A stretch of 64,000 bases of DNA. Source: Patescibacteria group bacterium. GTDB lineage: Bacteria; Patescibacteriota; UBA1384; DATEAH01. Location of the stretch: positions 131,636 through 195,635 of the forward strand of contig DATEAH010000005.1 in NCBI GenBank assembly GCA_035288465.1, read 5' to 3'. Below the pieces are notes generated by a model. The model was not told the DNA's origin and did not search any database. It saw nothing but the letters and a program-made list of their open reading frames with translations. This document shows, in pieces, positions 3,971 to 63,061 of this stretch (its first letter is position 1; every line of letters begins with the position of its first letter). A program made the translations under genes and the position numbers.

Positions 3971-5044
3971 TTATTTGAACAATTTTTTCTGACGACGGCT
4001 AATTTTTTCTTTTTGAGCTTTTTTGCTAACTTCTTGAGGACATTTAAAACCTAAATATTCAAAGGCTTTGCTAGTCGCCATACGGCCCTTGGGAGTTCGC
4101 TTTAAAAAGCCTAAACGCATTAAATATGGTTCATAGACTTCTTCAATGTTGGCAATATCTTCAGAAGAGGCGGCAGCTAATGTTTCCAAACCTACCGGTC
4201 CGCCTGAAAATTTTTTAATTAATATTTCTAATAATTTTCGATCAGCTTTATCCAAACCAATACTATCAATTTGGAGCATTTTTAAGGCTTTAAGACAAAT
4301 TTCTGGAGTGATTTTGCCTTGGTGCCTAACCTGGGCATAATCTCGGACACGGCGTAAAATTCGGTTGGCGATTCTAGGGGTCCTGCGGGCACTTTTGGCA
4401 ATTAATATGATTGAAGTATTATCAATTGGAATCCTTAAAATTTTAGCGGCGCGCTTTAAGATCCTTTTGACATCTTTGATTTTATAATAATCTAGCTTAA
4501 AAATTGCGCCAAACCGGTCGCGCAAAGGCGAAGAAATCCCGCCGATTTTAGTGGTGGCGCCAATGACGGTAAACTTGGGCAGTTCTAACCGCAAGGTTTT
4601 AGCAGATGGTCCTTTTCCTATTATTATATCTAAGGCATAATCTTCCATCGCCGGGTAAAGCAATTCTTCAATCAAACGACCAAGTCGATGGATTTCATCA
4701 ATAAACAAAATGTCAAAATCTGACAAACTGGTTAATATCGAAGCTAAATCTCCGGGCCGATCCAGAGTGGGACCCGAAGTAATTTTAATATTGGCAGACA
4801 TTTCATGCGCCATAATTTGCGCCATACTGGTTTTGCCAATTCCGGCTGGACCATATAAAAGAATATGCTCTAAAGGCTCTTTTCTTTTTCTAGCCGCCTC
4901 GAGCATAATTTTTAAATTTTCTTTAATATTGTCCTGTCCGGCAAATTGCGCTAAAGTGCTAGGTCTCAAAGATGAATCGGCCGGGATTTCATCGGGTTTT
5001 AATTTACCACTTACTAAACGTTTTTTTTCTTTTTTGATTGCCAT
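3971..5044 (-). CDS. ruvB: Holliday junction branch migration ATPase RuvB
   Basis: LYGPAGIGKTS Walker A, RuvB-like N-terminus LRPSTLAQFAGQD, AAA+ and winged-helix C-term. Confidence 0.9.
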   Translation of the reverse strand: MAIKKEKKRLVSGKLKPDEIPADSSLRPSTLAQFAGQDNIKENLKIMLEAARKRKEPLEHILLYGPAGIGKTSMAQIMAHEMSANIKITSGPTLDRPGDLASILTSLSDFDILFIDEIHRLGRLIEELLYPAMEDYALDIIIGKGPSAKTLRLELPKFTVIGATTKIGGISSPLRDRFGAIFKLDYYKIKDVKRILKRAAKILRIPIDNTSIILIAKSARRTPRIANRILRRVRDYAQVRHQGKITPEICLKALKMLQIDSIGLDKADRKLLEILIKKFSGGPVGLETLAAASSEDIANIEEVYEPYLMRLGFLKRTPKGRMATSKAFEYLGFKCPQEVSKKAQKEKISRRQKKLFK

Positions 5045-5200: not shown

Positions 5201-5770
5201 TTATTTTGCCATTTGCTTTAATGCCCAAGTAATTTTTTCTTCGGCGGTTTTTAAGTTTTTAGGAGTTTTGGCTAAGATTTTTTTGGCTTCTTCGGCTTTA
5301 TAACCCAATGACTTGAGACCTTCTAAAACTTCACTATAATCCCCACCAGCGTCTAAAATGCTCAAATCGTCAACTGAGATTTTACTTTTAAGTTCGAGGA
5401 TTAATCTGGTGGCAGTTTTTCGACCCACGCCAGAAATTGCCATAAACATTTCTAAATCATTGTTTAAAATTGCGTTTTTAATTTGTCCGCATTTGGCTCG
5501 GCTCAAGATTGCCATGGCCGCTTTTGGCCCAATTCCAGAAACTGTGAGCAATAATTCAAATAATTCCAATTCCTCAAAAGTTAAAAATCCAAATAGATCT
5601 TCGCAATTTTCCCGCAGATAATGATGCAAATATAATTTACTTCTTTTTCCAGTTTTTATGCCAGTCAAAGTTTGGGAATTTGCAAAAATTTTAAAGCCAG
5701 TATCGGCAGTTTCTAGAATCACAAAGTTTGGACCAACAAAATCTATTTTACCAGCCATGGTAATAATCAT
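5201..5770 (-). CDS. ruvA: Holliday junction DNA helicase subunit RuvA
   Basis: 189 aa; OB-fold N-term, HhH motifs (ISGIGPKAAMAIL / ISGVGRKTATRLI), C-terminal RuvB-binding domain. Confidence 0.85.
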   Translation of the reverse strand: MIITMAGKIDFVGPNFVILETADTGFKIFANSQTLTGIKTGKRSKLYLHHYLRENCEDLFGFLTFEELELFELLLTVSGIGPKAAMAILSRAKCGQIKNAILNNDLEMFMAISGVGRKTATRLILELKSKISVDDLSILDAGGDYSEVLEGLKSLGYKAEEAKKILAKTPKNLKTAEEKITWALKQMAK

Positions 5771-6943
5771 TTATATCCTTGATAATAATTGTTCAACTTC
5801 TAAATTTTCCGGTAATAATTTTATTTTAGTATTTTCGGCTAAGTTTAAGATTGAGTCTAAATCTTCTAAATTTGTTTTTCCACAATATAAATTTTTAAAA
5901 TTTTGAGGATGTTGATGCAGATTATTGGTAACTTTTTTTAGACCTTGCCAATATATATTATCATACCAAAAACGAAAATTATGTGTATTTTGACAATCTG
6001 TAATGCCGCGAAAAATTCGAGCAGTCCGGCGCCAAGCTAAATCTTTTTTTATGCCTTTAGATTTTAATTTTTCAAAAGTTTCGCGAAAGTTTAAATTTTT
6101 AGAAAGGTGAAAAGCTAAAATGCTCAAAGCCTCGGAGCCAGTTTTTGGGAATCTGCATTTGCCATTCAAAACCGCCAAACCTTCTTCGCAAGTTAAAAAA
6201 TTTTTACATCCCAAGGGCATACTTAAAATAGATAAGTTTGAATTCCAACCATTTTGTTGACGCAAAACATGGGTTTCAATTTCATGGGCAACTAATTGTT
6301 GAAGTCTAATTTTAGAAACTCGATGAGAATAAGGGATTATAATTCGAGGGCTATACTGACCCTCATTAATCACGCTTACGGTTATGGCAAGTGAAAATTT
6401 TTGATCAATAACCACGTTCCAGTGTCGAAGATGATAATGGCTAAGTGCTTTTTCAAAAACTTTTTTAATGGTAGTGGCGTCAAAATTACGAGATTTAATC
6501 TTTTTACGAGCTTTAAAAATCTTTTGGGCCTTTAAAATATCATCGGTGTTAGGTTTGCCGAATAAACTTTCAGATATTTTAGAAACTTGTTCGTCATTAA
6601 TGCCGATTGCCTGAACTAATTCAATTTGCATTTTTAATTCTAATAATCTGTCAGCATACAATTTTTTAATAATTCGATTTTTTTCATTTTTTAAATCACT
6701 GAGGAAAACATCAATTAATTTTAAATAAACTTTTAATTTTGGATCGGTTTCATATTTAAAATGCGGGTTTTCAATCTTTCCAGAAAGAAAATCTTTTTTT
6801 TCAGCATCTAAATTTTTAGGTTTTACGTTAGCTAATAATAAAAACTGCGAGGCGATATCTGCTAATCTTTTTCCCCACCTTGCATCTAATTTTTCACGAT
6901 TTAATTTTAGCATGGTTTTTTCAAAGCTCTTCAAAATATTCAA
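5771..6943 (-). CDS. DUF1704 / QEGLA-motif (tyrosine/phenylalanine carboxypeptidase-like) metallopeptidase-family protein
   Basis: HEIETH (HExxH) motif plus CEEGLAV matching the QEGLA signature; overlaps the downstream ATP-grasp gene by 23 nt. Confidence 0.55.
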   Translation of the reverse strand: MNILKSFEKTMLKLNREKLDARWGKRLADIASQFLLLANVKPKNLDAEKKDFLSGKIENPHFKYETDPKLKVYLKLIDVFLSDLKNEKNRIIKKLYADRLLELKMQIELVQAIGINDEQVSKISESLFGKPNTDDILKAQKIFKARKKIKSRNFDATTIKKVFEKALSHYHLRHWNVVIDQKFSLAITVSVINEGQYSPRIIIPYSHRVSKIRLQQLVAHEIETHVLRQQNGWNSNLSILSMPLGCKNFLTCEEGLAVLNGKCRFPKTGSEALSILAFHLSKNLNFRETFEKLKSKGIKKDLAWRRTARIFRGITDCQNTHNFRFWYDNIYWQGLKKVTNNLHQHPQNFKNLYCGKTNLEDLDSILNLAENTKIKLLPENLEVEQLLSRI

Positions 6944-7787
6944 TTATTTTTTTAGCAACATTAATACCAGTAATTTTTTCAAAAGACTTGAACATTGGCC
7001 CGCGATTAGCTTCTAATAAATAGTATTTCCCTTTATGCTCTAAAACATCAACGCCCGAAATATCATTTTTTTCCGCTTGGTTCGCAGCAATGGCTAATTT
7101 GGCTAATTTTGGATTCATCGGGTAACTTTTTGAATGCACACCAGAACTGGCATTTTGACCAGCCAAGGGAATTCCATGAGCCTTAGTTCTAACCATCGCA
7201 CCTAATACCTTATTGCCAACAACAAGAATTCGAATATAACTATTGGTGGGAATAAATTCCTGAATAAGATAATTATCGACTAAATGATTTTGGAAAAATT
7301 TTTCAGCTTCGCCGAAATTGTTAATCAGATAAATATCCTTACTCTGCTTGCCCAAATTATGTTTAATAATAATTGGATAGGGGAGATTGTTAAATTTTTC
7401 TGGAGAGATTTTTTTTGCCATAAAATACCAAGTCTCAGGCTGAGGGAGATGATTTTTAGCAAATTGAAAACTGGTAAAATGTTTTCCTAGGAAAAATGGC
7501 TGTTTGGCTAAGCGTTGATCAATAACTAATCTACCATTTTCCAACATATATTTAGCCAAAATTTGAGCTTCTTCGGGGTGCTTAGTGACGCCGCGTGGTA
7601 ATAGTAAATCATATTTTTGGGCTAAATCTTCACCGTCAATATTTATTACAAGTTTAGGTTCATATTTAATTGAAAATTGTTTGTAACCGACAAGATCGGC
7701 TGAGTGCCCTCTTTTTTCTGCTTCCTCTTTCAACCTGGTAGATTCTGGCGCGCCGCCCGCTCCTAAAATTGCAATTTTCACAATCAC
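6921..7787 (-). CDS. RimK-family ATP-grasp ligase (alpha-L-glutamate ligase-like)
   Basis: 288 aa; ATP-grasp fold motifs (IIKHNLGKQSKDIYLI..., EANRGPMF); 4-nt overlap with upstream gene. Confidence 0.7.
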   Translation of the reverse strand: MIVKIAILGAGGAPESTRLKEEAEKRGHSADLVGYKQFSIKYEPKLVINIDGEDLAQKYDLLLPRGVTKHPEEAQILAKYMLENGRLVIDQRLAKQPFFLGKHFTSFQFAKNHLPQPETWYFMAKKISPEKFNNLPYPIIIKHNLGKQSKDIYLINNFGEAEKFFQNHLVDNYLIQEFIPTNSYIRILVVGNKVLGAMVRTKAHGIPLAGQNASSGVHSKSYPMNPKLAKLAIAANQAEKNDISGVDVLEHKGKYYLLEANRGPMFKSFEKITGINVAKKIIEYFEEL

Positions 7788-9094
7788 TCCTTTTTATAAA
7801 CTTGTTTTAGGGTGGTTTTTTTAGCCGGGTCAATAATAAAATTTTTCAAGTCCCTTCTGCCAATAATCATGTCGCGCCTCAAATCACCACGATTAGCAAT
7901 TGTGGCCGCGGTTTTAATTTTTTTACCCGAAATAATAAAGATTAAATTAATTAAAGGTCTCACTTGGTGACCGTGTGAAGAATGAACTTTTTTTGAACCA
8001 ATTACCTTTTTATCTAAACTCAGTTCAGCGGCAATTTTTTGATCAATGCTGGTTCTAAAAGCACCGGTATCGGTTTTTGCCACCACATCTAAGTGTTGTT
8101 TTTTGGTAATTATTTTAACAGGTTCCAACATCCCCAAAACTCTTTTACCAGAAGCATCTTGAATTTCTCTAATTATTTCCCCACCAAATAGTTCTTTGGC
8201 AACGCGAATTGCTTTTTCCGTATCTTTTATTTTAAGATCTTCGACTCTTTCCAGCCTTCTTTTTAGGGGTGATAAATTTGCTAACTGGATCGCTAATCCT
8301 GGTCTGGCATTTAATTCCAATATTTGCGGGCCATCTTCGCGATCTAAAACAATATCCACTCCCAAATAACCCAAACCCACCGCTTGCTGTGCTTCGGAGG
8401 CTAAATATAAAATTTGTTCCCATTCTGGAATCTTTAAACCATTCAACTTTCTTTTAGTGCCTGGAAAATAACGAATTGTACGATTTTTCCACCAAGCACG
8501 CGTGGTAATGCCTGAAGCAATTTCTACGCCCACTGCTACCGCGCCCTGGTGAATATTTGCCCGCCCGCCAGAATCGCGAGTCGGCAATCTTAACATCGCC
8601 ATCACCGGAATTTTGTTATAAACGATGACTCTAATATCAGGCGTGCCGCGAAATGAAATTCGTTTGAAAAAACGGTGAGTTTTAACTTTTTGTTCGATAA
8701 AAGCCGTGTCTGGAGCATTATTCATGGAAAAATTTCCATCTAAAATATCCAAAATATGCATTTTAATATCAGAAATATTAATTTCCGAACTATCTTGTTT
8801 TGACCAACCATGCTTTTTTTTACCAAAAACCACTAATATTCCCTCGCCACCAAAACCTCGAGCCGGCTTGATCACAAAACTGTTTGGTAAGCTTTTCCAA
8901 TCAAAATTATCTAAATCTTTTTTAGATTCAAAAACTTGATAGATTTTTGGGGCTGACAAATGCGCTCGTTTAAGAATTTGTTTAGTAAGCAATTTATTAT
9001 CCACCAACCTTTTGAGGCGGCGGGGATTGGAGGGAGCAATAAAAAGAAGGTTTCTAGAATTCATCCCTAATAAATTTTTGAATTTTGCCATCAA
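7784..9094 (-). CDS. alpha-L-glutamate ligase-like ATP-grasp protein fused to C-terminal retropepsin-like (putative ATP-dependent Zn protease PF05618-like) domain
   Basis: N-terminal MNSRNLLFIAPSNPRR and ATP-grasp motifs; C-terminal ~120 aa with AKTDTGAFRTS (D-T-G-A aspartyl-protease-like) motif. Confidence 0.65.
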   Translation of the reverse strand: MMAKFKNLLGMNSRNLLFIAPSNPRRLKRLVDNKLLTKQILKRAHLSAPKIYQVFESKKDLDNFDWKSLPNSFVIKPARGFGGEGILVVFGKKKHGWSKQDSSEINISDIKMHILDILDGNFSMNNAPDTAFIEQKVKTHRFFKRISFRGTPDIRVIVYNKIPVMAMLRLPTRDSGGRANIHQGAVAVGVEIASGITTRAWWKNRTIRYFPGTKRKLNGLKIPEWEQILYLASEAQQAVGLGYLGVDIVLDREDGPQILELNARPGLAIQLANLSPLKRRLERVEDLKIKDTEKAIRVAKELFGGEIIREIQDASGKRVLGMLEPVKIITKKQHLDVVAKTDTGAFRTSIDQKIAAELSLDKKVIGSKKVHSSHGHQVRPLINLIFIISGKKIKTAATIANRGDLRRDMIIGRRDLKNFIIDPAKKTTLKQVYKKE

Positions 9095-9119
9095 AACCCC
9101 CTTTACAATCTGGGATTTA

Positions 9120-9809
9120 TTATTTAGATTTAATTACTTGTTGAAAACGAAAATATTCGGTCAACCTCAAACCTGTCCAACGACCAATTAAAAAATTAAA
9201 AATTATTAAGACTAAAATTATGGCCGGGTAACTAATAATAAAATTTTGAACCATCTTGGAGACCATTAAAAAATAGCAAAAAATAGAAATTATCAAAGTC
9301 TCAATCGTCAACCAACCAGCTTCACTCCAGCCACGTTCAATCTGTAAATTTATAAATCTTTCCACCAAAACAATCATCATCAACATTGGAAAAATCGCAA
9401 TCCCAGTGAGGTTGCCAATACCTAAATTGGCGCTAAAAACAATTAACAAAAGAGTGATAAAACTTACTAAAGTCAAAATTAATGCGGCTCTGGGTAAATA
9501 TAAAAGTCTTAATTTAACTAATAAAAAGCGAAAAACCGTACCTAGAACTAAGATGATCGCAAAAAAAAGCAAACCAAATTTAATGCCAGTGGCTAAAAAT
9601 GAGATTGACAAAATCGAGGGTAAATAAATTCCCAAGCTTTTTAGGCCCACCACCTGGCGAATAAAAGCAATAATAGTGGCAATGATTGGAAACATCAAGA
9701 CCAAAATAATCATTTCGCGGGGAATTCCATTCGTGATGGCTTGGTTTATCCAATCGCTCATAAAATTAAGAGACGATAAGTTCATAAGCCTCCTTATTAA
9801 ACTAATCAA
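9120..9809 (-). CDS. 7-TM integral membrane protein (7TM domain of the ATP-grasp/7TM/retropepsin system, no transglutaminase domain)
   Basis: 229 aa, ~7 hydrophobic helices; immediately upstream of the ATP-grasp fusion gene. Confidence 0.5.
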   Translation of the reverse strand: MISLIRRLMNLSSLNFMSDWINQAITNGIPREMIILVLMFPIIATIIAFIRQVVGLKSLGIYLPSILSISFLATGIKFGLLFFAIILVLGTVFRFLLVKLRLLYLPRAALILTLVSFITLLLIVFSANLGIGNLTGIAIFPMLMMIVLVERFINLQIERGWSEAGWLTIETLIISIFCYFLMVSKMVQNFIISYPAIILVLIIFNFLIGRWTGLRLTEYFRFQQVIKSK

Positions 9810-9888: not shown

Positions 9889-11022
9889 TTATTTGTGGTA
9901 ATATTTTTCCGCTAAATCAGCTAACTTTGATAAAAGTTGAGCATTGCCTTCAATTTTTTCCACTGAAACATCAGCAACATGGGCGGCTTTTTCTTGGCCT
10001 TTTTCACCGACTATTTCGGATTTGAGAACTAATACTCCGGCAGCTTTTCGTCCAGCTAAAGCAGCAGTTAAGTGCGCTGCCCGCAAGGCTTTGGCATCTT
10101 GGTTACTGTCTCCCATAAAGACTGCCCCATCAAAGCCGCCTGGAGTGCCTTTGAAATATGCTTTACGCTTCGGATCGTCTTCCTGGCGATATAACTGAAT
10201 CAAACTTTTTTCCTTGCCCTGTTCCCCATATGGTGAAATTGATACTCCGCATTGCGGATTTTTAAGATCTGGATTTTTTCCAATCGTTAATTTATACAAA
10301 GGTTTTAATTCATCTGGAATATCGTGTTCATATTTTTGTTGAATAATCCCAATATATTCGTCCCATTTGGCTGGATCAACTTGATTTAAATTGTAGGTTT
10401 GCGTTAATCCCTCAGAAAAATCAGTATTAACCGCTTTTTTCTCAAGAATGACTTTTCCGGATTTAGTTTGAATTTCCGAGGTTAATTCAGGCTGATCTGT
10501 ATCAATTATAGCCTCAGTTTAGGTTAAAAATTCATTTCGAATTCCGCCAAGTAAATTTGTAATTTGTTGTGAATGCGGCTGGAATTGTTCATCAATTATG
10601 CTTTCGCCTTGAGATGGATTATTGGGGTCTGTTTTGTAAACTTCCCAACCGGCAGTCCCAACGATTATTGAACCTGGAACTTCAATTTTAGCTGCACCAT
10701 CAGCCCCGCTCCGACCAGTCATAACCACAATTGGAATTCCTGAATTTTGTAAGCGTACTAATGAGTCTTTGGCTAAAGGATCAACTTTACAGTCGCGCGG
10801 ATCTTGAGCAAATGGTAGCACGGTACCATCTAAGTCTGTCGCAAAGACTAAACTTTGAGCAGTTTTTAATATATGCTCAAATTTATCTAGACTTTCTTCA
10901 ACGGTGAGAGGTCTTTCTAATTCTGGGGTCCGAAATCTTTCTGATTGAGCGACTTTGCTAGTATTTTGTGGGGCTTTAAAATTTTCCGCTCCTTCGGGAG
11001 TATTTGATAACGTTTCGCTCAT
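9889..11022 (-). pseudogene. otsB: trehalose-6-phosphate phosphatase (HAD-IIB) interrupted by an in-frame TAA at 10519-10521
   Basis: N-terminal piece has HAD motif I ATDLDGTVLP and motif II VVMTGRS; downstream piece in the same frame has the K motif and FMGDSNQDAKA (motif IV); a single TAA separates them, and the frame is open on both sides (checked codon by codon). Confidence 0.6.
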
Positions 11023-12083
11023 TTTAGCTTTCTATCCAAAACCTGCTTATATACTTTTTCATAATCATTAGTCATTTTTTGAATAGTAAAATTATCTTCA
11101 ACATGCTTTCGGCAAGCTCTTCGATCTATTTGACCAATTTTTTTGACTGCTTCTGCCATCGCATCAATATTTCCAGGCTCAACTAAAAACCCGGTTTTAC
11201 CATCAACAACGGTTTCAGATAATGCCCCGCGATTAAAAGTAACGACCGGCGCCCCACAAGCCATGGCTTCAACCGGCACTAAACCAAAGGGTTCGTCCCA
11301 AAAAATCGGATTTAAAAGACAAATTGCGTATTTTAATAATTTATTTTTTTCCTCAAAATCTGCTTCACCGACATAGCGGATCTGCGTGCCATCAATTAAG
11401 GGTTCTATTTCTTTTTTATAGTATTCAACATCGGCTTTTGATTCTTGATCTAATTTGGCTGCCATAATTAATTTCATTTTTAACTTTTTAGCCACCAAAA
11501 TCGCTTCCTTTGTACCTTTTTCGTAAGTTATTCGTCCCATCCAAAATAAATAGTCTTTGGGCTGATTTTTAAAGGCAAATTGATCAACTTCAACACCATT
11601 ATAAACCGTCGCAATATAATTTAAATCTTTTAAGGCACGTTGAGCATTAGAAATACTCACATATAAACTATCCCTAAATGTCTTGAGCAGTCTGGTTCTT
11701 TCAGGTGGATTTTCGGCGCGATCAATATTACCATGAAGGGTGTGAATAATTGGAACGTTGCTAATTTTGCTGAAAACTGAACTATAATTAACAGCGTGGC
11801 TATGAATAATATCAGCCTTATTTTTAATCGCATATTCAACAGCTTTAGCCACATTTGTTAAACTATCAGCATAGCTTGTCCAGGCAACCCCATCACGATA
11901 TAAGGCGCGCGGATAAACTGAAACTAATTTTGCTTTTGTAATTGAATCTCCAGTTGCAAATAAGGTGACATCGTGACCGCGTTTAACCAATTCTTCGGTT
12001 AAATTTGAAACAACTCTTTCCGCACCACCATATAAAGGTGGGGGAGTTCTTTCGCGCAAACTGGAAATAACGACAATTTTCAT
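11019..12083 (-). CDS. GT4-family glycosyltransferase (paralog A)
   Basis: 354 aa; N-term KIVVISSLRERTPPPLYGGAERVV and EPFGLVPVEAMACGAPVV (E-x7-E) GT4 motifs. Confidence 0.7.
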   Translation of the reverse strand: MKIVVISSLRERTPPPLYGGAERVVSNLTEELVKRGHDVTLFATGDSITKAKLVSVYPRALYRDGVAWTSYADSLTNVAKAVEYAIKNKADIIHSHAVNYSSVFSKISNVPIIHTLHGNIDRAENPPERTRLLKTFRDSLYVSISNAQRALKDLNYIATVYNGVEVDQFAFKNQPKDYLFWMGRITYEKGTKEAILVAKKLKMKLIMAAKLDQESKADVEYYKKEIEPLIDGTQIRYVGEADFEEKNKLLKYAICLLNPIFWDEPFGLVPVEAMACGAPVVTFNRGALSETVVDGKTGFLVEPGNIDAMAEAVKKIGQIDRRACRKHVEDNFTIQKMTNDYEKVYKQVLDRKLK

Positions 12084-12094
12084 TTTCCCTCGTT

Positions 12095-13552
12095 TTATAT
12101 TTTTAACAATTCTTCAAGAAATGTCCCAGCCCATTGAAAAACATTATTTTCCGCCGCAGATCGCTTTAAAATTTGCATACGTTCAATTTTTTGTTTACGG
12201 GGCATTTCTAGGGCTAATTTAATTTTATCGGCGGTTTGTTCAATATTATAAGGGTTAATCATCACCGCCTCAGTGAGACCTTTTGAAGCACCGGCAAATT
12301 TTGAGAGCATCAAAACCCCTTCAGGTCGGCAGCTCGCGACATATTCAAAACTAGCTAAATTCATGCCATCATCTAAAGAATTCACCAGACAAAGGTCGCC
12401 GCTTTTGTAAAAAGAAACAATATCTCGAAAATTAAGTTTTTCCTCAATAAAGTAAATCGGCACCCATGTTCCCTTTTTATATTTCCGATTAATCTTATCA
12501 ATCCGATTATAGACATCTTTTCGAAGCTGACGATATTGCGGGATTTTTTCTCTCGAAGTTGCCCCTAAACCAACATAAACAAATTTTTTCTGATACTTGG
12601 GATATTTTTCCAGGAAACGATCAATGGAATCGAGCCTTTCTAAAATTCCCTTGGTATAATCAATTCTATCCACGCTCACCGCTAAATGTTTGTAAGGACT
12701 CTTGACCACATTTTTAATAAAAGGGCTTATCCTTTCTCTAATTTTTTTAGCGGTTCCGGCAAATAAATTATAATCTGTCCCAATTGGAAAAGAACGGATA
12801 TACGTCCGGCGACCATGATATCTAACGTATGAATCTTCACGGTTAACGCGAGCTTCAAATGATCTTTCAATGCTATTGAGAAAATTATTAATATGATAAT
12901 TTCGGTGAAAACCTAATAAATCATTTCCCAATAAACCTTGAAGAATTTCTCGACCCCAAGGACAGGTTCGAAAAATTTCATAGGTTGGCCAAGGAATGTG
13001 CCAGAATTGGGCAACTTTAATCTTTGGATTTTTTTCTTTTAATAATTTTGGCAACAAAGCAAATTGATAGTCTTGAACCCAAATTAAGGCTTTTTTTGAA
13101 CCAACTTCTTTGAGGATAATTTCGGCAAACTTTTCGTTAACTTTTTTATAAGCTTGCCAATATTTTTCATCAAAAGTCGGCCGTACATAAACAATATGAC
13201 ACAATGGCCAAAGGGTTTGGTTGGAAAAACCAAAATAAAAATCATTAATTTCCTGATTGGTTAACCAAATTCTTTTGAGCTGATACTTGGGATTTTTTGG
13301 CGGCAAACCAACTTTGTCATCAACATCTACCACTTTTTTATCCGTTTCACCATTGCCAATTGCGGCCCATGTCCCACCGGTTGCCTGCATCACCAAATCT
13401 AATGACGCTCCTACGCCACCTGGGGTTCGGCGGGCAAGTATTTTACCATTGCTGACATAATGCTGATACGGTTCTCGAAAGGAAACAACGATTAAATTGT
13501 AATCTTTAAACTGGTCCTTGACTAATCTTTTTAGAGAATTCAGAGTCCACAT
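12095..13552 (-). CDS. otsA: trehalose-6-phosphate synthase (GT20)
   Basis: 485 aa; OtsA-like N-term (LIVVSFREPY..., GGVGASLD) and GT20 C-terminal domain. Confidence 0.8.
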   Translation of the reverse strand: MWTLNSLKRLVKDQFKDYNLIVVSFREPYQHYVSNGKILARRTPGGVGASLDLVMQATGGTWAAIGNGETDKKVVDVDDKVGLPPKNPKYQLKRIWLTNQEINDFYFGFSNQTLWPLCHIVYVRPTFDEKYWQAYKKVNEKFAEIILKEVGSKKALIWVQDYQFALLPKLLKEKNPKIKVAQFWHIPWPTYEIFRTCPWGREILQGLLGNDLLGFHRNYHINNFLNSIERSFEARVNREDSYVRYHGRRTYIRSFPIGTDYNLFAGTAKKIRERISPFIKNVVKSPYKHLAVSVDRIDYTKGILERLDSIDRFLEKYPKYQKKFVYVGLGATSREKIPQYRQLRKDVYNRIDKINRKYKKGTWVPIYFIEEKLNFRDIVSFYKSGDLCLVNSLDDGMNLASFEYVASCRPEGVLMLSKFAGASKGLTEAVMINPYNIEQTADKIKLALEMPRKQKIERMQILKRSAAENNVFQWAGTFLEELLKI

Positions 13553-13553
13553 T

Positions 13554-14648
13554 TCAACTCCTTTTTTCCCTCGGAAAATTATTAATTATTTCAAGATATA
13601 CTTTTTCATAATCTGCAACCATCTTAGAAACTGAAAAATTTTCCATGACATGCTGACGGCAAACTTTTCGATCAATCTGGTCAATTTTTTTTAAAGTTTC
13701 AATTGCACCATCAACATCTTTTACTAAAAAACCGGTCTCGCCATCTTTGATTAATTCTGGCATTGAACCACGCTTGGTGGCAATTACAGGCGTACCAGTC
13801 GCCATGGATTCAACCGGCACTAAACCAAAAGGTTCGTCCCACTGAATTAAATTTAATAAAGCTTTGGCATTTCGCAATAATTTATTCTTCTGTTCGTGAT
13901 TTGCTTCGCCAAAATAAATGATTTGCTTATTATCAAAATGCGGCTCAACTTCTTGATGATAATATTCCATATATTCTGGGTTCATTTCGTCAATTTTGCC
14001 AGCCAAGATTAATTTTTGGCCAGTTTTTTTGGCCACTTGAATCGCTTCCCTGGGACCCTTGGATTCTGAAAATCTGCCCATCCAAAATAAATAATCTTCG
14101 GGCTGATCATTAAAATCAAATTTATCAACTTCGATGCCATTATAAACTGTGGCCACATAATTTAGATTAGGAATTTTTCGCTGAGCATTGCTAATGGTGA
14201 CCAAAGGATGCTCTCGATATTTTTCTAAAAAGATTTTTCGATTTGCTTTATCCGGTGTAGTTGGCATTTCAAAATGCATTGTTGAGACAATTGGAGTTTT
14301 TAAATACCGGGCAAAGGGCAAAACAAAATAGTCAACCCGGGTATTAAATTGGACATGAATAATATCAAATTCTTTTTCCATATCTAAAGCCTGGGTTAAA
14401 TTTAATAAAGGATATAAAAATTCATTCCAGCCAATACCCATTTCTCGTAAAGTTTTAGGGACGACCGAAACTAAACGTGCGGAGGTTTTAGAATTGCCAG
14501 AAGCAAAAACTGTCACTTTATGCCCATTTTTAACCAACCCTTCCGCGAGGTTGTAAACGACCAATTCTGTCCCACCATATTTTTCTGGCGGTACTTTTTC
14601 CCAAATAGTTGAAACAATAGCAATTTTCATTGCGAGGTTTCCTTCCAA
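13554..14648 (-). CDS. GT4-family glycosyltransferase (paralog B)
   Basis: 364 aa; paralogous to 11019..12083 (KIAIVSTIWEKVPPEKYGGTELVV; EPFGLVPVESMATGTPVI). Confidence 0.7.
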   Translation of the reverse strand: MEGNLAMKIAIVSTIWEKVPPEKYGGTELVVYNLAEGLVKNGHKVTVFASGNSKTSARLVSVVPKTLREMGIGWNEFLYPLLNLTQALDMEKEFDIIHVQFNTRVDYFVLPFARYLKTPIVSTMHFEMPTTPDKANRKIFLEKYREHPLVTISNAQRKIPNLNYVATVYNGIEVDKFDFNDQPEDYLFWMGRFSESKGPREAIQVAKKTGQKLILAGKIDEMNPEYMEYYHQEVEPHFDNKQIIYFGEANHEQKNKLLRNAKALLNLIQWDEPFGLVPVESMATGTPVIATKRGSMPELIKDGETGFLVKDVDGAIETLKKIDQIDRKVCRQHVMENFSVSKMVADYEKVYLEIINNFPREKRS

Positions 14649-14684
14649 ATTTATTAACTATTTTGTTTATGAAATCGAATTTGC

Positions 14685-15650
14685 TTATTTTTTCTTTAAG
14701 AAAAGGGCGCCGCGTTCTGGCGAAACAATATCAATTGGGATGCCGGCGCCTAATTCAAAACCGCCCCAGAAAGACATTCTCGGTGTAATCTCAATATGAA
14801 AATGATAAAAATTATTACCTTCTAAAATATCAGGTGGAGTACTGTGAATATATAGATTATATCCCGGATCACCTAATTTTATATCAATTTTGGCTAAGAC
14901 TTCGTGTAAAATTTTGGCCATGTTTTTTCTTTTAGCATCCCTAATATCTTCAAAATGCGGGATGTGATCTTTTGGAACAATCCAAGTTTCAAACGGAAAT
15001 CTGGGGGCAAAAAAGGCAAAAGCGACAAAATCATCATTTTCTAAAATAATGCGGGCTTTTTGCTTTTTTTCTTCTTGAATAATATCGCAATAAACGCATC
15101 GATGGTGTCGCTGGTGATAATTTTTAGCACCATCCATTTCTTTGGTCAAATTAATAGGAATTACCGAGGAAGCGAAAAGTTGTGAGTGAGGATGAGCGAC
15201 AGTCGCCCCAGATTCTGGACCATGATTATGAATAACCATCACATATTCAATATCTGGATCTTTATAATAATATTTCATACGCTTTTGATAAGCCATTAAA
15301 ACTTCGTCGACTGATCGTGGACTTAATTCGGAAAAGTCACGAAAATGATCTCGAAAAATTAAAACTTCATGAGCGCCAACACTATTGGTCGAAAAATAAA
15401 GGTTTGAAGCTTGAAAAATAATTTTCTTTTCCATAGTAAAAACCGGGTATTTATTGGGAATCACGAGTACATTTTTAGTTGATACTTCGGCAATAACAGT
15501 TTTTCTGGCGGCACTGTCTGGACAAAAAGGACAATCCTGAGTTGGAACCTTTGGGGGTTTAGCGCGAACATAATCTCTTGGTCTTTTCGCACGTTCTGGG
15601 GCAATAATTGAATAATCCCCAGTAATAATATTTTGTCTTAAAACTGGCAT
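14685..15650 (-). CDS. galactose-1-phosphate uridylyltransferase-family (HIT superfamily) nucleotidyltransferase
   Basis: CPFCP zinc motif near N-term and HPHSQ (His-Pro-His) active-site motif. Confidence 0.65.
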   Translation of the reverse strand: MPVLRQNIITGDYSIIAPERAKRPRDYVRAKPPKVPTQDCPFCPDSAARKTVIAEVSTKNVLVIPNKYPVFTMEKKIIFQASNLYFSTNSVGAHEVLIFRDHFRDFSELSPRSVDEVLMAYQKRMKYYYKDPDIEYVMVIHNHGPESGATVAHPHSQLFASSVIPINLTKEMDGAKNYHQRHHRCVYCDIIQEEKKQKARIILENDDFVAFAFFAPRFPFETWIVPKDHIPHFEDIRDAKRKNMAKILHEVLAKIDIKLGDPGYNLYIHSTPPDILEGNNFYHFHIEITPRMSFWGGFELGAGIPIDIVSPERGALFLKKK

Positions 15651-15723: not shown

Positions 15724-16215
15724 TTAGTATTTGCAATTATTATGCCCGCAAATAGCGACTGCTAAGGCGTCAGCCGCGTCATCTGGTTTGGGTAAAAAAT
15801 CTAATTTCAAAATTGCTTTAACCATATTTTGAACTTGGACTTTATCAGCCCGACCATGACCGCAAACCGATAATTTGACTTCAAGCGGAGTAAATTCTAA
15901 AATTTCTTTTTTGGCCTTTGCCGCCGCTAATAAAACGACTCCACGCGCTTGGCCGACTGCCATCGCGGTTTTGGCATTATTGAGAAAAAAAAGCTTTTCC
16001 ACGGCAACTAAATCAGGAGAAGTCTCTTGAATGATTTGGCTAATATCCTGATAAATTTCAATTAATTTTTCCGGCAAGGGAATTTTCGGCTTGGTGGCAA
16101 TCACCCCATAATCTAATAATTTATAACAATGTTTTTCCAGTCTAACTAAACCAAAACCAGTAGTGGTGGTGCCAGGATCAATCCCTAAAATTATCATCTG
16201 ACTCCATTTTATCAA
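15724..16215 (-). CDS. ruvC: crossover junction endodeoxyribonuclease RuvC
   Basis: MIILGIDPGTTTTGFGLV N-terminal RNase H-like motif; true start may be the internal Met at ~16197. Confidence 0.85.
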   Translation of the reverse strand: MIKWSQMIILGIDPGTTTTGFGLVRLEKHCYKLLDYGVIATKPKIPLPEKLIEIYQDISQIIQETSPDLVAVEKLFFLNNAKTAMAVGQARGVVLLAAAKAKKEILEFTPLEVKLSVCGHGRADKVQVQNMVKAILKLDFLPKPDDAADALAVAICGHNNCKY

Positions 16216-16245: not shown

Positions 16246-16992
16246 TTAAGCCTCGGTCTCTTTGATTAAATCATCAGGAATATCAAAATTTGCCGCCACA
16301 GAAACAACTTCATCAATATTATCTAACTCGTCCATTAGTTTTAAAATTTTTTTCGCCGCACTCGCATCTTCTACCTTGACAATATTTTTGGGAATCATGC
16401 TGATTTCTGAATTAATTATTGCGAGATTTTGTTTTTGGAGTTCATTTTTAACTTTTTCTAATTCCTCGGGTTTAGTATAAATTAGGATTTCACTTCCTTC
16501 ATCTGTGACATCATCAGCGCCGGCGTCAATGGCGATCAATTCTATTTCTTCTTTGTCTTCCCGATGGGACCCCTTTGGGACAATCCTTATAATTCCTTTT
16601 TGTTCAAACATCCAACTGACTGAACCTGAACCCGCTAATTTGCCACCGGATTTATCGAGGATGTTTCTAATTTGTGAAGAGGTGCGATTTTTATTATCAG
16701 TGGTAATAGAAATTAAAATTGCCACTTTTTCTGGACCAAAGGCTTCATAAGTGGCATCTTCAAATTTGACATCACCCAGTTCACCGGTGCCGCGTTTAAT
16801 CGCTCGATCAATATTTACTGAGGGCAAATTGGCTTGTTTGGCTTTTTCAATGGCTAAACGGAGCTTGATTTCGGATTTTTCGCGCGCAGCGATAGCAATA
16901 AGATGGGCTAATTTGGTAAAAATTTTACCTTTTTTCTTGTCAGCAATTTCTTTTCTAAATTTTATATTTGACCATTTTGAATGACCCGACAT
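16246..16992 (-). CDS. yebC: YebC/PmpR-family probable transcriptional regulator
   Basis: MSGHSKWSNIKFRK... hallmark N-terminus; start placed at that Met rather than ORF-track 17043. Confidence 0.85.
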   Translation of the reverse strand: MSGHSKWSNIKFRKEIADKKKGKIFTKLAHLIAIAAREKSEIKLRLAIEKAKQANLPSVNIDRAIKRGTGELGDVKFEDATYEAFGPEKVAILISITTDNKNRTSSQIRNILDKSGGKLAGSGSVSWMFEQKGIIRIVPKGSHREDKEEIELIAIDAGADDVTDEGSEILIYTKPEELEKVKNELQKQNLAIINSEISMIPKNIVKVEDASAAKKILKLMDELDNIDEVVSVAANFDIPDDLIKETEA

Positions 16993-17144
16993 CTTCGCTC
17001 CCTTCAGTCGCTCAAAATTAAAGATTAAAAATAAAAGATTCAAGATGAATATAAAAAACGATATGCAATTTTTGAAATTTACTCTTAATTTTTGCCCTTT
17101 GCTCTTTTATTTTACTCTCTTTTGATGAAAAGTCCAGTTTTTAC

Positions 17145-17173: not shown

Positions 17174-17278
17174 ATAGGCATTCGAGGCTAACTTTAGCTT
17201 CGTTCGTGATATTGTTCGTTAACAAAACCCTTCGGGGTTAAACTTTCCGCCTCTGCGGCGGAGAAGGAGGTGTTAACC

Positions 17279-18241
17279 GTGAGGTTGGCACTTGCAATCG
17301 TCGTGTTGCTCGTTGTTGCTGCGTCAGTCACATTGGCGCAGTCGGCCCCAACCTGCGTGGTCGTCGTTGACCCGCAGGCCGAGTACGGCTACGGCGGTTA
17401 TGGGGGGTACGACGGGAGCTACTATTACAGCTCCCAACTCTCCCAGATCGCCAAGCAGGAACTGGAGGCTGCGCTCAGCGAGCGCGGCTGGCTGGTTCTG
17501 CTCAATGCCTCGGACGTCGGTCCGACCCAGGAGGAGTTGCTTCTTGAGAACTCCGAATGGGGCATCAACGGCAGAAATCGCCAACCTATCGGTGATTTCA
17601 CCGGAGCAACAGAGACATTTCTTGTCTCCGCCTTCACATTTGGCGGCCGCGATTTTGAACTCGCGGCTTGGCTGGATGATGCCTATCCTTCGGTCCGACT
17701 CTCGGACCTACGGGTGAAGGCGATTATCCGGCGTTCGTCAACGCGGACCCGGGAGGTTCCCGCGGTCTATGAGGGCTACGGCTCGAAGCGGATTGTCAAA
17801 GACGTCCGCTTGGGTATCCAGTCCTCGCGGAATTTCTGGGGTGGTCTTGTTCAATTGGCAAGCCAGGCTCTCGAAGCTGGTTTAACTGATTGGCAAGACG
17901 CCGGACGAGCCGCCGCACGAGGCGCCATCGAAAATGCCCTTCGGGGTATTGAAGCGCCACGCCAACTGGCTCCCACAACCAGTTCGTCAGCTTTCACAAG
18001 CGCTGACGCGCAAACGTCAACCCCCCGGTACATTTTCCTAATGCTTTATGGTCAGGAAGTTTCCGAGGGCGACCGCTTCGGCATTTGGCGAGACAATCGT
18101 CAGATCGCCGAGGTTGAGGTCGAGTTTGTCCGCTCAGACAACCGAGCATCCTGTCGAGTACTTCGCAGCTCGGTTCCTGATCTTGGCCGCCCCGGCGACT
18201 CCGCCCGCAGTCTCACCCCGACCATCCCCATAGAGCAGTAG
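17279..18241 (+). CDS. secreted protein of unknown function, GC-rich (~60% GC) in an AT-rich backbone
   Basis: GAAGGAGG SD, GTG start at 17279 (ORF-track start 17270 sits directly on the SD); signal peptide RLALAIVVLLVVAASVTLAQS; Gly/Tyr low-complexity YGYGGYGGYDGSYYY; no recognised domain. Confidence 0.55.
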   Translation: MRLALAIVVLLVVAASVTLAQSAPTCVVVVDPQAEYGYGGYGGYDGSYYYSSQLSQIAKQELEAALSERGWLVLLNASDVGPTQEELLLENSEWGINGRNRQPIGDFTGATETFLVSAFTFGGRDFELAAWLDDAYPSVRLSDLRVKAIIRRSSTRTREVPAVYEGYGSKRIVKDVRLGIQSSRNFWGGLVQLASQALEAGLTDWQDAGRAAARGAIENALRGIEAPRQLAPTTSSSAFTSADAQTSTPRYIFLMLYGQEVSEGDRFGIWRDNRQIAEVEVEFVRSDNRASCRVLRSSVPDLGRPGDSARSLTPTIPIEQ

Positions 18242-18274
18242 CTCCACCAATCTCTCCCTAAGGGAGGTGAAACA

Positions 18275-18472
18275 ATGCACTTCGAAACTAGAGTAGTCGT
18301 TGTAGAAACTGAAGGTAGGGGCGTCAGGGCAGCAACCGAACAACTCGCCGTGGATATTGCACTGCTTGGATCCGAAGGCTGGGAGGTCAAAGGACTCAGC
18401 AGCATGCTCCCCGACGAGTACCACGGGTACCATATCTGCGTCCTCCAACGCCCCACCTCTACCAAGTCCTAA
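18275..18472 (+). CDS. small DUF4177-like protein
   Basis: 65 aa; strong SD GGGAGGTG then ATG; pattern ETRVVVVETEG.G...LGSEGWEV...LQRP resembles the DUF4177 family; GC-rich. Confidence 0.45.
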   Translation: MHFETRVVVVETEGRGVRAATEQLAVDIALLGSEGWEVKGLSSMLPDEYHGYHICVLQRPTSTKS

Positions 18473-18568
18473 CGTCTCGTCGCAAGTGAGTACATCGTGT
18501 GCATCCTCGCCCGACCCATCGAGGCCGGCTAACATTAGCGGTCTCGCTACCTGGAGTTGGATCTGATG

Positions 18569-18622
18569 ATCATAACCTCAAGGTTATGATTTAGCGGCAA
18601 ACCGCTATCTGCCTCCCGGCAG
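18569..18622 (+). terminator. cluster of three hairpins downstream of the GC-rich two-gene cassette
   Basis: ATCATAACC-TCAA-GGTTATGAT (9-bp stem), AGCGG-CAAA-CCGCT, CTGCC-TCCC-GGCAG; no strong T-run, so terminator function is inferred. Confidence 0.35.
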
Positions 18623-18836
18623 AAAATCAGACCCAGCTCCTTTTCGTTTTCAAAAAATAAATTGAGAATATAGAGCGAGGCGTCTCCTAAGAAAAGTGTC
18701 TCGAGCCAAACCCGAGGGAATTTTTTAAATAAGTTGAAAGTTTATGGTTTGGCGAAAGTCAAGTGATGATCGAGAAAATTTTATCAAACAAGAAAAAATT
18801 ATCGGAGCGTCTTTTCGTGGAGTATGTTGAGCGAAA

Positions 18837-28949: not shown

Positions 28950-28996
28950 TATAAATCTCCTCTAAGTTTAATTATTGGCTTTCGGCTCGAAATTTG

Positions 28997-29068
28997 TGGC
29001 TGGGGTGGGGCTCGAACCCACAACCTACAGCTTATGAGTCTGTTGCTCTACCATTGAGCTACCCAGCC
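28997..29068 (-). tRNA. tRNA-Met/Ile2 (anticodon CAT), elongator-type
   Basis: GGCTGGG...CCCAGCC acceptor, D-arm GCTCAATGGTAGAGC, loop CTCATAA, T-arm GTGGGTTCGAGCCCCAC. Confidence 0.8.
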
Positions 29069-29194
29069 ATGTCGCGACAACCTCCACATTGTTCGCTCTG
29101 ATGTGCAAATAATACATCATAGCTCATTAGCTATAGTGTCGTTCCTTTCCAAAAATCAAAGATTTTTGGTTTTTTCAGATTTCGAATTTGTATA

Positions 29195-29265
29195 TAGCGG
29201 GGCCTGGATTTGCACCAGGGTCTACTGCTTATGAGACAGTCGAGGTACTACTCCTCCACCCCGCA
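29195..29265 (-). tRNA. tRNA-Met (anticodon CAT), initiator-like
   Basis: 5' ...GCGGGGTGGAG resembles bacterial tRNA-fMet; position 1-72 mismatch; T-loop TGCAAATCC; anticodon loop CTCATAA. Confidence 0.7.
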
Positions 29266-35633: not shown

Positions 35634-35650
35634 AATTGTAAACAAAAAAT

Positions 35651-35721
35651 GGGCCTGGCAGGGATCGAACCTGCGACATGACGCTTATAAGACGTCCGCT
35701 CTGCCACTGAGCTACAGGCCC
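35651..35721 (-). tRNA. tRNA-Ile (anticodon TAT)
   Basis: GGGCCTG/CAGGCCC acceptor, D-arm GCTCAGTGGCAGAGC, anticodon loop CTTATAA (UAU), T-arm GCAGGTTCGATCCCTGC, discriminator A. Confidence 0.7.
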
Positions 35722-62398: not shown

Positions 62399-62504
62399 CG
62401 GCTGATTCCTCCCGGGGGGTCTGATAATGAATCAGTTAATTTATTATCTCAAATAAATTTGAAAAAATCAAGATTATATAGTAAAATAATGATATAAAAT
62501 TTGA

Positions 62505-62781: not shown

Positions 62782-63061
62782 AATCAAAACATCTCAATTT
62801 TATGAGAAATTTTGATTTGTTTTGGCAAGGGCGAGAACCCATGGCGTAAAACATCGTCAAATAAAAAAGTGACATTTTAGCAAAAAGTTTAAAGAATTAA
62901 AACATTTTTGTATCGAGACGGGCTTTAGCCCTTTGAATCGCCTCATCGGCGATCCAGCGAAGAGGTGAATCCCTGCCCCGGAGCCACGAAAAATGACTCA
63001 GCCATAAAATGACTCAGCCACGCTTCGCTGTCTCGTAGCGATAGAAAGGACGCAAATAATC

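Follow-up and report, generated by a model that had tools for sequence, protein, structure and literature searches.

A Patescibacteria variant of the Rlo and Rim systems with a fused ATP-grasp ligase and retropepsin-like domain and an accessory MATCAP-like gene

Introduction

Operons that pair ATP-grasp ligases with peptidases are presented, by Iyer et al. 2009 as cited in PMC3495828, as peptide-tagging systems akin to the modifiers of tubulin. Here we describe a four-gene locus at positions 5771-9809 of a 64,000-nucleotide stretch of contig DATEAH010000005.1 from a Patescibacteria group bacterium; the whole stretch is hereafter the window, and its numbering is used throughout. The locus encodes a seven-transmembrane (7TM) protein, an ATP-grasp ligase fused to a retropepsin-like domain, a RimK-family paralog and a MATCAP-like metallopeptidase. 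It is a Patescibacteria variant of the known Rlo/Rim systems, undescribed as far as the searchable literature shows, in which we found no description of the Patescibacteria fusion or of a function for a bacterial DUF1704 protein. The logic of an ATP-grasp ligase, a tag-reversing peptidase and a 7TM/transglutaminase protein, as in the window, was reportedly recognized by Iyer, Abhiman, Burroughs and Aravind in 2009, when the activity of MATCAP was not yet known.

RloABC, described in Pseudomonas aeruginosa and P. fluorescens, consists of a secreted retropepsin that cleaves Glu-rich sequences (RloA), an inactive transglutaminase fused to a 7TM module (RloB) and a cytoplasmic ATP-grasp protein (RloC) (PMC12239564). 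Deletion of rloB or rloC rescues the hypo-osmotic lethality of a triple protease (rloA1-3) mutant, and its effects in Pseudomonas extend to osmotic tolerance, biofilm formation, the shape of the cell and sensitivity to antibiotics, with beta-lactam phenotypes among those reported for rlo mutants; the biochemical product of RloB/RloC is unknown (PMC12239564). In the Rim system, RimK makes poly-alpha-L-glutamate and glutamylates ribosomal protein S6, while the retropepsin-like endopeptidase RimB cuts terminal and internal poly-Glu and stimulates poly-alpha-Glu synthesis by RimK; a proteolytically active RimB-RimK hybrid with the protease at its N-terminus exists in Desulfotalea psychrophila (DP2392) (PMC11957791). 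The eukaryotic MATCAP/TMCP enzymes, defined by an extended HExxxH motif, are carboxypeptidases that take one residue at a time off the C-termini of acidic tubulin tails and have deglutamylase activity (PMC10499314). In Photobacterium damselae, low salinity strongly induces a gene of the related QEGLA type together with its neighbour 'GshB' and with rimK (PMC10308900).

Organization of the locus

The four co-directional open reading frames (ORFs) at 5771-9809, of 229, 436, 288 and 390 amino acids, all lie on the minus strand at the positions first given, and their domain matches are well beyond what chance would produce. The genes and the two domains of the fusion are as follows.

9120-9809, minus strand: 7TM protein with the C-terminal module of RloB only, 229 amino acids (PF14402)
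7784-9094, minus strand: ATP-grasp and retropepsin fusion, 436 amino acids (PF14397, TIGR02291, PF05618)
8195-9094, minus strand: RloC-type ATP-grasp ligase domain, residues ~1-300 of the fusion (alignment A1 and Foldseek)
7805-8149, minus strand: retropepsin-like aspartic peptidase domain, residues ~316-430 of the fusion (A1 profile and Foldseek)
6921-7787, minus strand: RimK-family ATP-grasp ligase paralog, 288 amino acids (PF08443)
5771-6943, minus strand: metallopeptidase-like protein of the MATCAP/TMCP family (formerly DUF1704, QEGLA), 390-amino-acid ORF (PF08014)

The layout had been likened to a family of ATP-grasp, 7TM and retropepsin-like systems, and this resemblance is real, the system now bearing the name RloABC (PMC12239564). 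As in the Pseudomonas locus, an RloC-type ATP-grasp protein, a PF14402 7TM protein and an RloA/RimB-type retropepsin are encoded together. Unlike the separate and secreted RloA, however, the window retropepsin lacks a signal peptide and forms a single polypeptide with the cytoplasmic ligase; the 7TM protein is devoid of the periplasmic inactive transglutaminase domain of RloB, longer Patescibacteria forms carrying a PKD domain instead; RimK-family and MATCAP-like genes are added; and the host belongs to the Patescibacteria, whereas RloB is reported as 96% Proteobacteria.

The pairing or fusion of an ATP-grasp enzyme of glutamate-ligase type with a cytoplasmic retropepsin is shared with RimK/RimB/RimBK, and the window has a RimK-family paralog as well. 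Here the protease sits at the C-terminus of an RloC-type (PF14397) ligase, in contrast to the RimBK hybrid in which it is N-terminal to a true RimK; a 7TM partner is present; and the RimK paralog does not reach the cutoffs of the RimK family and equivalog models. With its ligase and protease both located on one side of the membrane, like RimK and RimB, the window system therefore looks like a hybrid of the Rim and Rlo designs. A known anti-phage defence system was also considered and rejected, as none of the four proteins has a PADLOC match at E <= 1e-3.

The original prediction had the genes overlapping by 4 to 23 nt. Their packing is tight and a 4-nt GTGA overlap between the fusion and RimK genes is possible, with GTG 7781 another possible start of the RimK paralog, but the overlaps are otherwise doubtful or absent. 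That of 23 nt between the RimK and MATCAP-like genes requires a doubtful TTG start; the public gene call (P0121, 380 amino acids) begins at ATG 6913, 7 nt past the RimK stop codon. The 7TM and fusion genes are separated by a gap of 25-28 nt containing a GGGGG Shine-Dalgarno-like run, and the fusion likely starts at ATG 9091, a database copy of 435 amino acids (P0001) being 100% identical. Promoter-like sites in the AT-rich window are no more numerous than in shuffled sequence, and a terminator scan found no convincing terminator within the four-gene cluster.

The ligase-retropepsin fusion and its 7TM partner

With a match to PF14397 (ATPgrasp_ST) at 1.6e-73 and 247.8 bits, the 436-amino-acid protein falls within the ATP-grasp superfamily. 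Its residues 6-296 align to positions 10-303 of 317 in TIGR02291, 'alpha-L-glutamate ligase-like' (311.5 bits, E 5e-93), a score 2.7 bits below the curated cutoff (314.2), itself defined on unfused proteins. In a 27-sequence alignment (A1), the ATP-grasp residues K76, G82-G83-x-G85, D247, E260 and N262 are invariant, the last three making up an intact Mg/ATP motif D..E-x-N. An AlphaFold2 model with a mean predicted local distance difference test score (pLDDT) of 85.2 shows two domains joined by a low-confidence linker at residues 306-314. The structures in the PDB nearest to the ATP-grasp part by Foldseek are those of RimK (4iwx/5zct), ArgX/LysX and cyanophycin synthetase, all of them enzymes that ligate onto carboxylates of peptides or proteins.

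For the second domain, PF05618, a retropepsin-like family labelled 'Zn_protease' and now called RimB-like, matches residues 351-427 with 30.7 bits against a cutoff of 27. Invariant positions in A1 are D342, A345, G375, R379, R402 and G412, with T343 and G344 conserved at >=90%; DTGA occupies residues 342-345 and G412 lies within a retropepsin-type I-I-G-R-R-D-L motif. Searching the PDB with the single fusion sequence gave no match and a profile was needed: the A1 profile aligned residues 332-429 to RloA (9g58, 7.6e-6), RloA2 (9g59, 4e-5), Lpg0085 (2pma) and Ddi1. As the first 50 whole-protein Foldseek matches were all ATP-grasp enzymes, the C-terminal domain was modelled alone (pLDDT 76), and it then matched foamy-virus protease, RloA, Lpg0085, ApRick, HIV-1 protease and Ddi1. 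Profile matches to RloA and the predicted fold thus agree with the earlier reading of a DTGA-bearing retropepsin at the C-terminus of an ATP-grasp protein, and the domain does fit a retropepsin-like fold. The linker contains no hydrophobic segment, which places the retropepsin domain in the cytoplasm. This domain has a net charge of +16 over 121 amino acids, against a window background of 1.3 +/- 3.9 per 100 amino acids, and such a basic domain would fit an acidic substrate.

The 229-amino-acid protein matches PF14402 (7TM_transglut) at 8.4e-34 over profile positions 56-247 only, and positions 314-507 of the 508 in the NCBIfam RloB model (NF052267) are the only ones that align to it. As only the 7TM part of the RloB model is matched, the protein has no transglutaminase part, as had been proposed, and it has no PKD ectodomain either. 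A cytoplasmic C-terminal motif, G209..G213-L-R215..E218..R221-F222, is conserved and nearly invariant in an alignment of 78 sequences. The tail that follows this motif in the window, ...QQVIKSK, is basic, and the C-terminal peptide of the protein reads GRWTGLRLTEYFRFQQVIKSK.

Distribution across Patescibacteria

Scanning a single genome for each species yielded at least 597 relatives; the locus counts given here refer to the best 80, in which ORFs were called and then searched with iterated profiles of the window proteins. The fusion had been taken for a peculiarity of this DNA. It proves instead to be the standard architecture in Patescibacteria: the 120 best database matches are, without exception, full-length fusions of 427-492 amino acids, those named by organism among them being metagenome-assembled genomes (MAGs) of Patescibacteria, and the fusion is found in 80 of 80 loci. 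A 7TM gene lies directly upstream in 76 of the 78 evaluable loci and comes in three size classes of ~225 amino acids (as in the window), ~300 and ~520; the sampled long forms bear an N-terminal PKD domain and showed no transglutaminase domain. Extra RimK-like ligase genes stand downstream of the fusion in 38 of 66 loci, 16 of which have two or more; where present, these genes follow immediately on the same strand, often as two copies. MATCAP-like genes occur in 23 of 80 loci, seven of which have a RimK-like gene as well.

The anticipated co-conservation of all four genes is therefore borne out for the 7TM and fusion pair and not for the RimK-like and MATCAP-like genes, which are variable accessories. 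Given this constancy on one side and variability on the other, the core of the system is the 7TM protein together with the fusion, and the two further enzymes are frequent but optional. The exact window order of 7TM, fusion, RimK, MATCAP, ruvA, ruvB and queH recurs in locus L085, where the fusion is 57% identical. In L087 the RimK, MATCAP, ruvA, ruvB and queH genes are kept with a MATCAP-like protein 35% identical, the contig being cut within an unannotated 359-amino-acid gene upstream of RimK. Of the closer relatives, L083 is without the MATCAP-like gene, and L081 has a GNAT acetyltransferase in place of both accessories.

A co-conserved small substrate ORF had also been envisaged, and none was found near the system in the 80 loci. 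When the remaining ORFs from -5 to +6 kb around the fusion gene were clustered without bias, no further conserved small partner emerged, and the clusters comprised only ruvC, yebC, a PBP1A-like gene, ribosomal protein genes and antisense artefacts.

Three further observations concern these loci. An extra free-standing retropepsin-like gene stands right after the fusion in L019 (7119-7664, plus strand; PF05618 5e-11) and L070 (2831-3331, plus strand), giving two protease-domain copies per locus. The PBP1A-like gene, encoding a class A penicillin-binding protein of ~850 amino acids, follows the fusion at a distance of 1-4 kb in 19 of 80 loci, in 18 on the same strand (L003, L005, L009, L010, L014-L016, L020, L021, L023, L024, L026, L028, L035, L036, L070 and L074 among them); it is a notable neighbour given the cell-shape and beta-lactam phenotypes of Pseudomonas rlo mutants, but could reflect inherited order. 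Finally, some fusion-bearing MAGs are labelled 'uncultured Gammaproteobacteria', 'Bdellovibrionales', 'Pseudomonadales' or 'Candidatus Fimivivens' (L006, L008, L012, L016, L023, L024, L026, L031 and others). Their loci share the gene order of Patescibacteria, for example yebC-ruvC-7TM-fusion-PBP1A, and the labels may be placeholders or binning errors.

The RimK-family paralog

The 288-amino-acid protein matches PF08443 (RimK) at 8.7e-25, in keeping with the second RimK-type ATP-grasp of the original prediction, and it retains the D..E-x-N motif in GVDVLEHKGKYYLLEAN. It reaches 119 bits with TIGR00768 (cutoff 143), 106 bits with the LysX model and 55 bits with the E. coli-type equivalog PRK10446 (cutoff 331). 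Its sequence matches in the PDB are LysX (3vpd), ArgX (3vpb) and RimK (4iwx/5zct), at ~1e-11. Some of the RimK-like genes downstream of the fusion in other loci are longer, encoding 505-640 amino acids with 200-300 extra residues (L004 3045, L005 5213, L016 8395-10308, L043 8299, L061 9450 and L068 6072). These extra residues are possibly further fused partner domains; in L016, the only one tested, they have no Pfam match.

The MATCAP-like metallopeptidase

PF08014 (formerly DUF1704) matches the 390-amino-acid protein over positions 7-334 of 365 (7.6e-33, 114.4 bits against a cutoff of 27). With TIGR02421 (QEGLA) it scores 119.1 bits against a cutoff of 338.65, by which measure it is a relative of this 'flavohemoglobin expression-modulating' equivalog and not a member. 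It had been called a DUF1704 (QEGLA) HExxH protein; the family stands, but the motif is H220-E-I-E-T-H225, that is HExxxH, followed by E253-E-G-L-A. Aligned to human MATCAP (7z5g), HEIETH falls opposite HEIGTH and EEGLA opposite EEGLA, within a weak similarity (E 5e-8) that covers the C-terminal half only. HExxxH is found in 22 of 25 MATCAP-like ORFs of the related loci. The window protein thus resembles MATCAP/TMCP1-2 (KIAA0895L/KIAA0895) in its PF08014 domain, in both aligned motifs and in its partnership with ATP-grasp ligases, as MATCAP opposes TTL/TTLL. Unlike eukaryotic MATCAP, it belongs to a host without microtubules, and in some Patescibacteria the domain is fused to the ligase.

A word-indexed homolog search with this protein gave only two matches, and an exhaustive search, used instead, returned 1469 cluster representatives. 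Among the best 150 of these, 26 are ligase-retropepsin-MATCAP fusions, whole or truncated at the N-terminus. Of the 80 loci, 13 encode a ligase-retropepsin protein that continues at its C-terminus into a MATCAP-like domain and reaches 760-840 amino acids; Pfam confirms this triple fusion in L022, L045, L050 and L069. The retropepsin motif D-[TS]-G has decayed or been lost in 10 of these 13 triple fusions versus 3 of 69 elsewhere: it is intact in 57 of 59 loci without a MATCAP-like gene and in 9 of 10 with a separate one, as against 3 of 13 triple fusions. This pattern suggests that the MATCAP-like peptidase can replace the retropepsin, and that both may erase the product of the ligase in interchangeable jobs.

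The C-terminus of the 7TM protein varies along the same lines, ending in -EE or -EEE in 7 of 11 triple-fusion loci, compared with 7 of 56 loci without a MATCAP-like gene and 0 of 10 with a separate one. Such ends, for example ...RHVEEE and ...KDDEEE, are carried by the proteins of L042, L043, L045, L048, L050, L052-L054, L057, L076, L078 and L080, and may hint that an acidic 7TM tail is itself a substrate of the ligase or carboxypeptidase.

The QEGLA (TIGR02421) gene clusters of Proteobacteria likewise place a DUF1704/MATCAP-like gene beside an ATP-grasp ligase, as on a Mesorhizobium plasmid and in Photobacterium. In contrast to the window, with its retropepsin and 7TM protein, the ligase of these clusters is GshB-like and the partner is an N-formylglutamate amidohydrolase, adjacent or fused.

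A proposed ligase-peptidase cycle and its alternatives

The reading that we favour, at a probability of roughly 55%, is a Rlo/Rim homolog in which ligases and peptidases, docked to the membrane in the cytoplasm, act in a cycle on alpha-peptide chains that are acidic and probably rich in Glu. It draws on the family assignments and motifs, on the structural neighbours of both fusion domains, on the constant 7TM gene and the frequent RimK-like ligases, on the MATCAP fusions with their decayed retropepsins, on the ligase pairing of MATCAP-like genes in Proteobacteria, on the basic charge of the retropepsin domain and on the published properties of RimB, RloA and MATCAP/TMCP. The sequences themselves establish what the domains are, that their catalytic motifs are intact, how they are fused, that the genes are linked and that the retropepsin motif decays in MATCAP fusions. 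The enzyme activities, the glutamate substrate, the 7TM docking and the physiological role that we infer by analogy would combine as follows. By way of its conserved C-terminal motif, the 7TM protein would anchor the RloC-type ATP-grasp domain to the cytoplasmic side of the membrane, where this domain would use ATP to add amino acids, most likely L-glutamate, building alpha-linked acidic chains that are either free or attached to the C-terminal carboxylate of an acceptor. The RimK paralog would serve as a second ligase, priming or extending the same chains. In the manner of RimB and RloA, the cis-fused retropepsin, presumably active as a dimer, would cut Glu-rich chains endoproteolytically and probably also tune the turnover of the ligase, and the MATCAP-like enzyme would trim single residues from the chain C-terminus, as MATCAP/TMCP do on acidic tubulin tails. 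Such a cycle of writing and erasing would set the amount or length of the acidic peptide, its purpose by analogy with Rlo probably being envelope or osmotic homeostasis. The original proposal of ATP-dependent peptide ligation with peptidases for removal is reasonable.

Several points weigh against this cycle. A cytoplasmic, fused retropepsin implies a reaction topology different from that of the Pseudomonas model with its secreted RloA, and the basic charge of the domain weakens across homologs to a mean of +4.4 per 100 amino acids, positive in 72%. The RimK paralog and the MATCAP-like protein lie below the trusted cutoffs of TIGR00768, PRK10446 and TIGR02421, and the operon yielded no acceptor protein or small substrate ORF. 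The association between retropepsin decay and MATCAP fusion is uncorrected for phylogeny and may stem from one or a few events in related lineages. We know of no biochemical activity for any RloC-type ligase or bacterial DUF1704 protein, so that glutamate is proposed by analogy only.

The same enzymes could instead tag the C-terminus of one specific protein reversibly with Glu or another amino acid, the target possibly being the 7TM tail or ribosomal protein S6, with the MATCAP-like enzyme and the retropepsin removing the tags as a bacterial counterpart of TTL/TTLL-MATCAP. RimK, LysX/ArgX and TTL extend protein C-terminal Glu, and RimK and LysX/ArgX supply the nearest structures; the 7TM C-terminal motif is almost invariant; the -EE/-EEE ends in triple-fusion loci recall those of detyrosinated tubulin and S6; and MATCAP/TMCP work on the acidic C-terminal tails of proteins (PMC10499314). 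Yet these acidic ends are confounded by phylogeny, the window 7TM tail is basic like most others, and the RimK paralog has only 55 bits with the E. coli RimK equivalog model, whose cutoff is 331. We judge this explanation unlikely. A further alternative, rather unlikely in our judgement, has the ligases amidating or extending a non-protein acceptor, whether a small molecule (a cofactor or osmolyte, for instance) or a precursor of the envelope (a glycan or the stem peptide of peptidoglycan); export or flipping of the product would fall to the 7TM protein and its recycling to the peptidases. This alternative draws on the cofactor glutamyl ligases MptN and CofF within the RimK family, with which the RimK paralog scores 85 and 68 bits, on the name of PF14397 ('sugar-transfer associated'), on the amidohydrolase and GshB-like partners of Proteobacterial QEGLA, and on the cell-shape and beta-lactam phenotypes of Rlo mutants (PMC12239564). 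The neighbouring genes divide on the matter: GT20, GT4, GalT-like and HAD genes stand upstream of the system in the window and the PBP1A-like gene follows the fusion in 19 loci (18 on the same strand), but only 4 of 80 loci have a homolog of the window GT4 close to the system, and the PBP1A and ruvC linkages fall largely in the same loci and may be mere inherited gene order. Retropepsins, moreover, are endopeptidases that need several peptide residues.

It is very improbable that the RimK paralog and the MATCAP-like protein are mere neighbours of the 7TM and fusion pair, engaged in unrelated work such as ordinary S6 glutamylation. Their genes are missing from many loci, and the close relatives L081 and L083 dispense with one or both. 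Against this, the covalent fusion of MATCAP to the ligase-retropepsin protein in 13 of 80 loci, with the retropepsin motif decaying there, tells strongly; RimK-like genes sit immediately downstream on the same strand, often in two copies, and the four-gene order is retained at 35-57% protein identity.

The Patescibacteria variants are natural fusion experiments, which put the protease on the cytoplasmic side with the ligase and show that the transglutaminase ectodomain can be dispensed with. The most interesting elements are the covalent tie between MATCAP and the ligase and, where it occurs, the apparent replacement of a decaying retropepsin, which lead to the prediction that bacterial DUF1704/MATCAP proteins trim ligase-made C-terminal residues. 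A bolder and quite improbable version holds that the MATCAP-like and ATP-grasp enzymes form a bacterial writer/eraser pair on a protein C-terminal tail, the best candidate being the cytoplasmic tail of the 7TM protein, with its -EE end in most triple-fusion lineages, and that this pair was a forerunner of the TTL/TTLL-MATCAP cycle of tubulin tyrosination and glutamylation. If true, a writer/eraser tail cycle would occur widely among Patescibacteria and would link a membrane sensor to a tail modification that can be undone. The variants also hint at the origin of the eukaryotic eraser of tubulin tails. The system is common in a phylum whose envelope and stress physiology are almost unstudied, and as a compact set of three or four proteins it is suited to reconstitution in vitro.

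Genomic setting

The minus-strand array that contains the system runs in the order yebC, ruvC, GalT-like, GT4, GT20, second GT4, HAD phosphatase, four-gene system, ruvA, ruvB and queH (GT, glycosyltransferase family). Its main flanking genes are listed below.

16246-17043, minus strand: yebC (jackhmmer match and ORF)
15724-16215, minus strand: ruvC (jackhmmer match and ORF)
14685-15650, minus strand: GalT/HIT-like gene of the sugar cassette
13554-14648, minus strand: GT4 of the sugar cassette
12095-13552, minus strand: GT20, trehalose-6-phosphate synthase family (PF00982, 3e-117)
11019-12083, minus strand: second GT4 of the sugar cassette
5201-5770, minus strand: ruvA (ORF and junction sequence)
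3971-5044, minus strand: ruvB (ORF translation)

As the original prediction stated, the system stands directly upstream of ruvAB: the stop codon of the MATCAP-like gene abuts the ATG of ruvA with 0 nt between them. The ruvA gene is probably co-transcribed, and we regard it as context and not as a demonstrated component of the system. The sugar cassette and the four-gene system lie between ruvC and ruvAB and so split the usual yebC-ruvC-ruvAB neighbourhood, yebC-ruvC being ~6 kb upstream of the system and ~10 kb from ruvAB. Among the related loci, ruvA comes after the system in L081, L083, L085 and L087, and ruvB likewise in L083, L085 and L087. In 25 of 80 other loci (among L002-L074), ruvC immediately precedes the 7TM gene and has the same orientation, with yebC further upstream in 18; the ruv linkage is thus conserved well beyond the window genome and may be either functional or an inherited gene order.

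The sugar cassette (11019-15650, minus strand) may synthesise a compatible solute, beside a system whose relatives act in osmotic stress. Its linkage to the system is specific to the lineage of the window, as shown by the 4 of 80 loci with a GT4 homolog nearby, and a conserved 'sugar-transfer associated' context was rejected on this count.

Between the cassette and the 7TM gene, ORFs of 167 (10519-11022) and 136 amino acids (9889-10299) share the minus strand and one reading frame, interrupted by a single TAA at 10519-10521. Joined, they look like one sugar-phosphate phosphatase of HAD/S6PP type with ~377 amino acids, whose N-terminal half matches PF08282, and relatives carry a 387-amino-acid S6PP gene at this position. 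The interruption could mark a pseudogene or a split gene, or stem from a sequencing error. The 136-amino-acid ORF was considered as a small substrate upstream of the system and rejected, being the tail of this phosphatase gene.

Other features of the window

A group I intron (RF00028, 81 bits) is located at 62451-62732 on the plus strand, with flanks at ~62420-62790 and no rRNA around it. When ~285 nt are removed in silico, ARAGORN folds the flanks into a tRNA, most often tRNA-Leu(CAA), and the 3' flank contains a T-arm and an encoded CCA; it is therefore a tRNA gene interrupted by an intron, which had escaped the standard tRNA scan. At least one further tRNA is unusual, a tRNA-Ile whose anticodon, TAT (UAU), is uncommon in bacteria; it lies at 35650-35721 (minus strand), and two close tRNA(CAT) genes lie at 28996-29265 (minus strand).

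Directly beyond yebC, at ~17250-18650 on the plus strand, a ~1.4-kb island of 55-62% GC stands out in a genome of ~36% GC. It encodes a 323-amino-acid ORF (17270-18241, plus strand) with a hydrophobic N-terminus and a Gly/Tyr-rich stretch and no Pfam match, and could be horizontally acquired DNA or an assembly chimera. Elsewhere, a 651-amino-acid protein (59604-61559, minus strand) contains repeated FG-GAP-like units, a metal-binding motif of MopE type and a region weakly resembling C39-like peptidases; it is probably secreted or exposed at the surface and unrelated to the four-gene system.

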